Shown piece after piece: positions 4,446 through 4,911 of a DNA stretch of 64,000 nt (position 1 is its first letter; each line of letters starts with the position of its first letter). The stretch is from Podarcis vaucheri (taxonomy: Eukaryota), in the NCBI GenBank assembly GCA_965113315.1, contig OZ220364.1. The stretch is one strand, 5' to 3'. Below the pieces are notes generated by a model. The model was not told the DNA's origin, made no database searches, and saw nothing but the letters and a program-made list of their open reading frames with translations. Both the position numbers and the translations under genes were made by a program.

Positions 4446-4456
4446 ACTGTCAGACT
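4446..4456 (-). promoter_or_regulatory. Self-priming primer binding site
   Basis: AGTCTGACAGT lies 2 nt from the LTR end and is the exact reverse complement of LTR 4587-4577; no TGG tRNA-type PBS. Confidence 0.75.
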
Positions 4457-4458
4457 GC

Positions 4459-4911
4459 TGTCAGGGGATGATTAGCTGCTTGTGCTTAAAATTGTGCCCC
4501 TTCAGAGTTTGTGCGGCCCCACAAACCTCTGTGTGTGACAGAGCTCCTCAGACATGTCTGCTCTAGTCACTAGTAGAGTCTGACAGTGGCTGCCTGCGGA
4601 AGCGCTTCCAGCAAAGAAGTTCCTTAACGGAAACGCGTCTCCTGGACTCACGACGTGGCAGCTTCCAGCGAAGCATGGGTCTCCCTGCAGTTGCTTCTGA
4701 CACCTCCCCGCTATTTTCGCTGGAAGTGTCTCTCACCCCTTTCTCTCCCCTGCTGTTTCCTGCCTGGGCTGCTGCGTCTCTCTCAGCATTACTGAGATCC
4801 TCCTCCAGAGACCCCTCGCTCCCCCTCCTTGTCCCTGCTTTAGCTGCTGACTCTCTCCCAGTCTCTGGGAGCCCTACCACCTCCCTTTCCTCTGATGTCA
4901 GTTCCCTGACA
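4459..4911 (-). repeat. 5' LTR (453 bp)
   Basis: Terminal inverted repeats TGTCAGGG...CCCTGACA just upstream of the PBS and the gag ATG; second LTR not in window. Confidence 0.8.

Follow-up and report, generated by a model that had tools for sequence, protein, structure and literature searches.

How a retrotransposon primes reverse transcription when its primer-binding site (PBS) does not resemble the end of a tRNA is the question raised by an element on the minus strand of a 64,000-nt stretch of Podarcis vaucheri DNA (GenBank assembly GCA_965113315.1, contig OZ220364.1), hereafter the window. One answer is offered by Tf1 of fission yeast, which primes with the 5′ end of its own RNA. PMC6317226 and bioRxiv 10.1101/2022.12.06.519325, both with reference to Butler et al. 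2001, describe self-priming of this kind as common to the Tf1/sushi group, in yeast and vertebrate members alike; the statement of the initial annotation that it had already been proposed for sushi-like elements is thus borne out. Here we describe the element and its relatives, the evidence that its PBS pairs with a segment of its own long terminal repeat (LTR), and the readings that could account for this pairing. All features are given on the minus strand.

A young chromodomain Gypsy family

In the window lies the 5′ part of a chromodomain Gypsy (Ty3/Gypsy chromovirus) retrotransposon of full length, which is complete at 5,560 nt once the adjoining genomic stretch is added. Its 5′ LTR (4459..4911) is 453 nt long, runs from TG to CA with an 8-bp terminal inverted repeat, and is 99.6% identical to the 3′ LTR (2 mismatches over 453 nt), which lies 5.1 kb off, just beyond the window (stretch L031). 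The element is bracketed by a 5-bp target duplication, the left copy of which is at 4912..4916 and the identical five bases of which follow the 3′ LTR; a polypurine tract precedes the latter. The gag frame (3400..4413, 337 aa) shows capsid and CCHC zinc knuckle matches, and pol (2..3487), in the −1 frame, overlaps it by 88 nt and extends past the window edge. In a Pfam scan, pol gave protease, reverse transcriptase (RT), RNase H, integrase, a Tf2-like SH3 domain and a chromodomain, in that order. The chromovirus assignment reflects this order of catalytic domains with a terminal chromodomain, together with the LTR pair, the polypurine tract and the 5-bp duplication. A pattern search found no canonical slippery heptamer, and the LTR contains neither a TATA box nor AATAAA. 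Elsewhere on the minus strand of the window, open frames of 150–210 codons at 55585–56217, 23724–24212 and 27218–27679 are without a Pfam match.

The family to which this element belongs is young and high-copy. Identity is 98–100% in the 40 copies that were scored from among 2,880 candidates, no fewer than 1,414 places in the genome carry both 11-mers discussed below at the correct spacing, and the LTR pairs of 33 of the first 50 copies sampled are without any substitution. The closest proteins are Gypsy polyproteins of Podarcis muralis (97% over RT–RNase H), followed by polyproteins of Anolis, snakes, frogs, fish and fungi at ~45–55%, most of them with a chromodomain. It is on these domains and nearest proteins, not on a tree with sushi-ichi or Amn references, that the putative placement in the Tf1/sushi group rests. 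With that group, as characterized in the portions of the literature consulted, the element shares the Gypsy domain order, the chromodomain at the integrase end, the CCHC Gag, the −1 gag/pol overlap and an LTR-complementary, non-tRNA PBS. The CCHC Gag and the −1 frame are the two traits that the relevant part of bioRxiv 10.1101/2022.12.06.519325 lists for non-yeast members, and both are present. The lizard element differs from known members of the group as a separate young family in which many copies end in TA rather than CA.

The primer-binding site and its complement in the LTR

The PBS (4446..4456) is the 11-mer AGTCTGACAGT, read from 4456 to 4446. Its reverse complement, ACTGTCAGACT, stands without a mismatch at 4587–4577 inside the LTR; this segment (4577..4587) is predicted to form bases 1–11 of the RNA and to serve as a self-primer. 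In the window copy, the two bases at 4458–4457 form a spacer (4457..4458) between the PBS and the LTR end at 4459. This perfect complementarity, 2 nt past the LTR, had been claimed by the initial annotation and proved exact when the LTR limits were set by the LTR pair and the target duplication. The same holds for its view that a TGG-type tRNA site is missing, as no TGG follows the LTR in the window copy or in any of the seven families introduced below. A complement of at least 11 nt starting 0–4 nt past the LTR end arose in 10 of 5000 dinucleotide-shuffled LTRs. Within U3 there is also a perfect 11-bp inverted repeat (4726–4716/4672–4662), which belongs to a motif present three times; an 11-bp stem by itself is therefore not rare, and it is the location at the primer site that matters.

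The pairing within and across families

Compensatory change across copies had been put forward as a check on the duplex, and on running it we found the pairing kept, with altered letters, both among copies and among seven families. Within the family, both 11-mers are unchanged in the 29 nearest other copies. The LTR end is exact at 212 places that carry a variant PBS, with U to C at 4452, and the matching primer change, A to G at 4581, is present in all 30 of those examined. Genome-wide, the 4452/4581 pair is concordant at 1,411 of 1,414 places. The count covers copies in which both arms are otherwise unaltered, since the search pattern fixed their remaining ten letters. Neither type is rare, the first 50 copies being divided 23 to 27 between them. 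Of the 3 discordant copies, two (L132 and L134) are recombinant-like and one resembles a later point change.

The within-family switch was probably a single inherited event. In the 50 copies sampled its alleles track those at 4658 and 4297, two unrelated positions, without exception, and such equally tight linkage suggests that the switch itself may have been inherited once; for the same reason, the idea of many independent switches inside the family is unsupported. Between the two arms, five of nine variable sites give all four allele combinations with the arms, while arm against arm does not; sites between the arms thus recombine or recur. Counting against the pairing, contigs of four other sequencing runs list the PBS change at 4452 (in one run, at as much as 95% of depth) but not its partner at 4581. 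The table of contig differences from which this comes is incomplete for short contigs, as a narrower repeat listed zero differences for contigs whose pieces carry up to 9. Unlike in that table, the two changes occur together in this genome.

Comparison between families provides a test with far more sequence change. From the best 150 scored of 5,652 candidates in a Gag profile search we obtained six further chromodomain families (B to G), whose RT is 52–86% identical to that of the window family (52–100% when the window family is included), and compared one representative of each, with the LTR end set by the LTR pair and its flanks. In all seven, the PBS starts exactly 2 nt past the LTR, after a spacer of G and then a pyrimidine (GC or GT), and is complementary to the element's own LTR over 11 nt (10 in family D). 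The primer 11-mers, family D excepted, differ from one another at 2–9 of 11 positions. When each PBS was set against the LTRs of foreign families, 41 of 42 comparisons gave a match of 4–8 nt and the remaining one a match of 10 nt, as opposed to 10–11 nt with its own LTR, a length reached by 0–5 of 1000 shuffles per family. These comparisons argue strongly that the pairing has been maintained through sequence change in related families, and we regard them as good comparative support for it.

Individual loci give a similar picture. A perfect match was present in 22 of the 30 loci selected by Gag (one of the 22 unconfirmed as an LTR element); of the others, 1 had a G–U wobble, 3 carried a PBS deletion and 4 were without an LTR. 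Many of the 30 share one contig and are near-identical, and so are not independent. We also compared 19 longer stretches, including five extensions of Gag-selected loci; the match was perfect in 15, contained a single mismatch or wobble in 2 and was unjudgeable in 2. The locus L032/L092 has an 11-bp match and the 2-nt spacer; with no LTR pair and little pol, it was left out of the count. The top Gag matches cluster on contig C41 (L033–L061), many of them near-identical and two with an identical 10-nt PBS deletion, a crowding that perhaps reflects a repeat-rich sex chromosome or segmental duplications. With respect to polyadenylation-type motifs, AATAAA lies between the primer and the LTR end in families C, F and G (loci L093, L105 and L106), is not found downstream of the primer in families B and E (L104 and L102), and occurs nowhere in the LTR of the window family.

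Predicted transcription start, flanking duplexes and the probable route of priming

If the LTR complement is the 5′ end of the RNA, then transcription should begin at 4587. An initiator-like hexamer fitting BBCA+1BW, given as the human initiator consensus in PMC5287114, lies at 4585..4590 with its +1 A at 4587, the predicted start. Base 1 of the primer coincides with the +1 A of this motif in six of the seven families, with four distinct upstream triplets and against a background of 3–11 sites per LTR; the consensus is a human one applied to lizard elements, and the families are related. In the seventh family, a TATA-like GATAAAAG is found at −31 to −24. For the start at about 4587 inferred by the initial annotation, the initiator register is indirect support rather than proof. 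A bacterial promoter scan found nothing, a type of scan that is irrelevant to a lizard host.

The flanks of the central duplex were compared with those of Tf1, which requires three duplexes according to part of bioRxiv 10.1101/2022.12.06.519325. A U5 arm (4475..4485) is able to form 10 of 11 Watson–Crick pairs with a leader arm (4427..4437, pairing as 4437–4427), a degree of pairing reached in 1 of 300 shuffles, and the two arms are invariant in 50 of 50 copies and unchanged in 49 of 50 copies, respectively. This U5–leader stem is also present in families B and E with 14 of 16 pairs and altered letters; in families C, D, F and G it does not rise above shuffles, which leaves it above shuffles in three of the seven. 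For the third duplex, between the LTR end and R sequence, nothing past 1–2 pairs is common to the seven families, and the longest candidate is weak (−8.2 kcal/mol with 2 mismatches, on bases that vary among copies, and with no control). Base 12 of the predicted RNA is C (4576) and the first spacer base is G (4458) in all seven, permitting an extra pair past a one-base bulge that adjoins the predicted cut site. Taken together, the layout appears Tf1-like, with the full three-duplex "pretzel" found only in part: two of the three duplexes in three of seven families and the central one only in the other four.

Resemblance to Tf1 and Tf2 of Schizosaccharomyces pombe, and likewise to Tj1, Tosmo1–3 and Tcry1, extends to an 11-base LTR segment complementary to the PBS, a U5–leader stem and a chromodomain, as far as the sources consulted describe them. 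Unlike the lizard element, Tf1 has a single open reading frame and is without CCHC (relevant passages of bioRxiv 10.1101/2022.12.06.519325), and its mechanism has been demonstrated by experiment. Self-priming instead of tRNA priming is also predicted, in a section of PMC6317226, for the Tcn1 clade of mosses and fungi and the TAR Copia lineage of plants, which differ in their hosts, TAR belonging to another superfamily. Two further papers (PMC3601003 and PMC2864245) provide, in the parts consulted, general background only. In the literature covered, with primary Tf1/sushi papers, most subscription journals and supplements outside its scope, we found no account of this lizard family and none of covariation between families in vertebrates.

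We consider it very likely that the element, as a putative member of the Tf1/sushi group, uses Tf1-type self-priming, and we have high confidence in the following scheme, the steps of which are taken by analogy from accounts of Tf1 in portions of PMC7175516, PMC5341516 and PMC4600332. RNA polymerase II would begin transcription at 4587, and bases 1–11 of the RNA would fold back on the PBS ~120 nt downstream, aided by the U5–leader stem. The RNase H of the element would then cleave after base 11, and the released 3′ end would prime minus-strand DNA, copying the 2-nt spacer first and then U5 and R. The spacer copy would later be trimmed by integrase. Plus-strand synthesis would re-copy the primer into the PBS, as in Tf1, and this would help to keep the two sites matched. 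Approximately half of Tf1 cDNA is described in part of PMC11042837 as retaining a PBS copy derived from the primer, and we infer that a primer change could thereby pass into the PBS.

Traces of such intermediates were also sought in the genome. Leftovers beginning at base 1 or base 12 gave 0 matches, an uninformative outcome as the pattern covers about half of the junctions and had no positive control. Leftovers ending in a PBS copy gave 8 matches, none of them usable: 4 were unrelated and 3 were 5′ LTRs of the usual kind, slightly altered at the PBS or next to it. The eighth (L177), a 3′ LTR followed by the spacer and 5 PBS bases, was rejected as a dead-end product: it is an unremarkable insertion, and its target duplication reads as these letters by coincidence.

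The readings that compete with self-priming differ in how much of the pairing they accept. That the match is a by-product, arising by chance or as a spin-off of the terminal inverted repeat of the LTR, would fit the 7 letters that the PBS and the LTR end have in common, the TGACAG motif at both, and one copy (L175) with slippage between them. When the shuffle test described above was repeated with the LTR ends preserved, just 16 of 5000 reached at least 11 nt, and other families keep the match with PBSs that are unlike their LTR ends, so that this explanation is effectively refuted and its probability close to nil. Priming by a tRNA, a tRNA fragment or RNA of a tRNA-derived SINE, with the LTR match serving as a structural aid (a PBS shield or a means of dimer formation), is highly improbable. 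Half-tRNA priming does exist in Copia lineages, according to a passage of PMC6317226, and the 11-mer stands ahead of a T-loop-like motif at 8 genomic places (L135–L142), compared with 2 for a control. This tRNA-context search, another check named in advance, used an exact pattern with the 11-mer of the window family and a T-loop pattern. ARAGORN found 0 tRNA genes at the eight loci, which are probably a tRNA-derived repeat (SINE) with a coincidental match, and behind the T-loop motif, in the position of a 3′ arm, the 11-mer gave 2 matches versus 10 for the control. With TGG missing in all seven families and no tRNA gene found, by exact pattern, to carry the 11-mer of the window family, we rejected a tRNA-type PBS. 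Moreover, seven differing PBSs would demand seven host primers, each matching the element's own LTR by chance.

A third reading accepts that the pairing is real and selected, and would have the primer act in trans or come from elsewhere, whether from the 5′ end of a co-packaged RNA, from the 3′ copy of R, or, by cleavage at either side, from a longer transcript. Covariation cannot separate cis from trans and the 11-mer occurs in both LTRs, and the discordant copies L132 and L134 look like recombinants between subfamilies, which suggests that RNAs are co-packaged. In addition, free folding with upstream bases yields a longer stem (4598–4589/4437–4428) that would need a start upstream of 4587. 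In 34 of 50 copies the upstream arm of this stem is altered and the pairing disrupted, whereas the U5 arm competing for the identical leader bases is the invariant one described above; the longer stem was rejected on these grounds. Also at odds with a primer supplied in trans are the beginning of the match at the initiator +1 in six of seven families, as expected for an RNA 5′ end, and its length of 11 nt, the same as in Tf1 (in the part of PMC7175516 consulted). We judge this reading unlikely, and self-priming in cis remains our preferred account.

A further feature of the family concerns the LTR ends. TA replaces CA at the end of both LTRs (the equivalent of 4460 in the window) in 14 of 50 sampled copies, on several haplotypes, and also in family E (L102). 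The 5-bp target duplications are intact in nine TA-ended copies (L118, L119, L122–L126, L128 and L131), so that such an end appears to be tolerated by integrase. In L127, L130 and L134, and also in L150, the two LTRs of the copy are unlike within their last 4 bases; of 35 LTR-to-LTR differences in 50 copies, 6 lie at 4462–4459, and the unusual 3′ end of L150 accounts for three of these. These differences may reflect use of a second RNA template near the PBS.

On a bolder and more tentative reading, which we regard as possible but rather doubtful, lizard chromoviruses would employ a stripped-down form of Tf1 self-priming. An 11-base primer set by the initiator would dock exactly 2 nt past the LTR, the C12–G pair would mark the RNase H cut, the flanking stems would be optional, the PBS would be rewritten in each cycle, and integrase would accept the TA end. 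If this were true, the more than 1,400 young copies would make up the first vertebrate system in which self-priming could be read from tissue RNA and cDNA ends.

In terms of broader significance, self-priming is expected for this group and the known picture is unchanged. Experimental evidence for it comes from fission yeast, and for vertebrate elements it is a proposal in the literature consulted. Self-priming predicts a single capped RNA start, at 4587, and cleavage that follows base 11. There is also a practical consequence, in that LTR finders will overlook or misinterpret such elements if they insist on a tRNA site or on CA at the end. Seven families in one genome, with the duplex kept in different letters, constitute a tractable vertebrate test case, and their covariation, together with the initiator register and the TA-ended copies, is a useful addition to what is known of self-priming in vertebrates.
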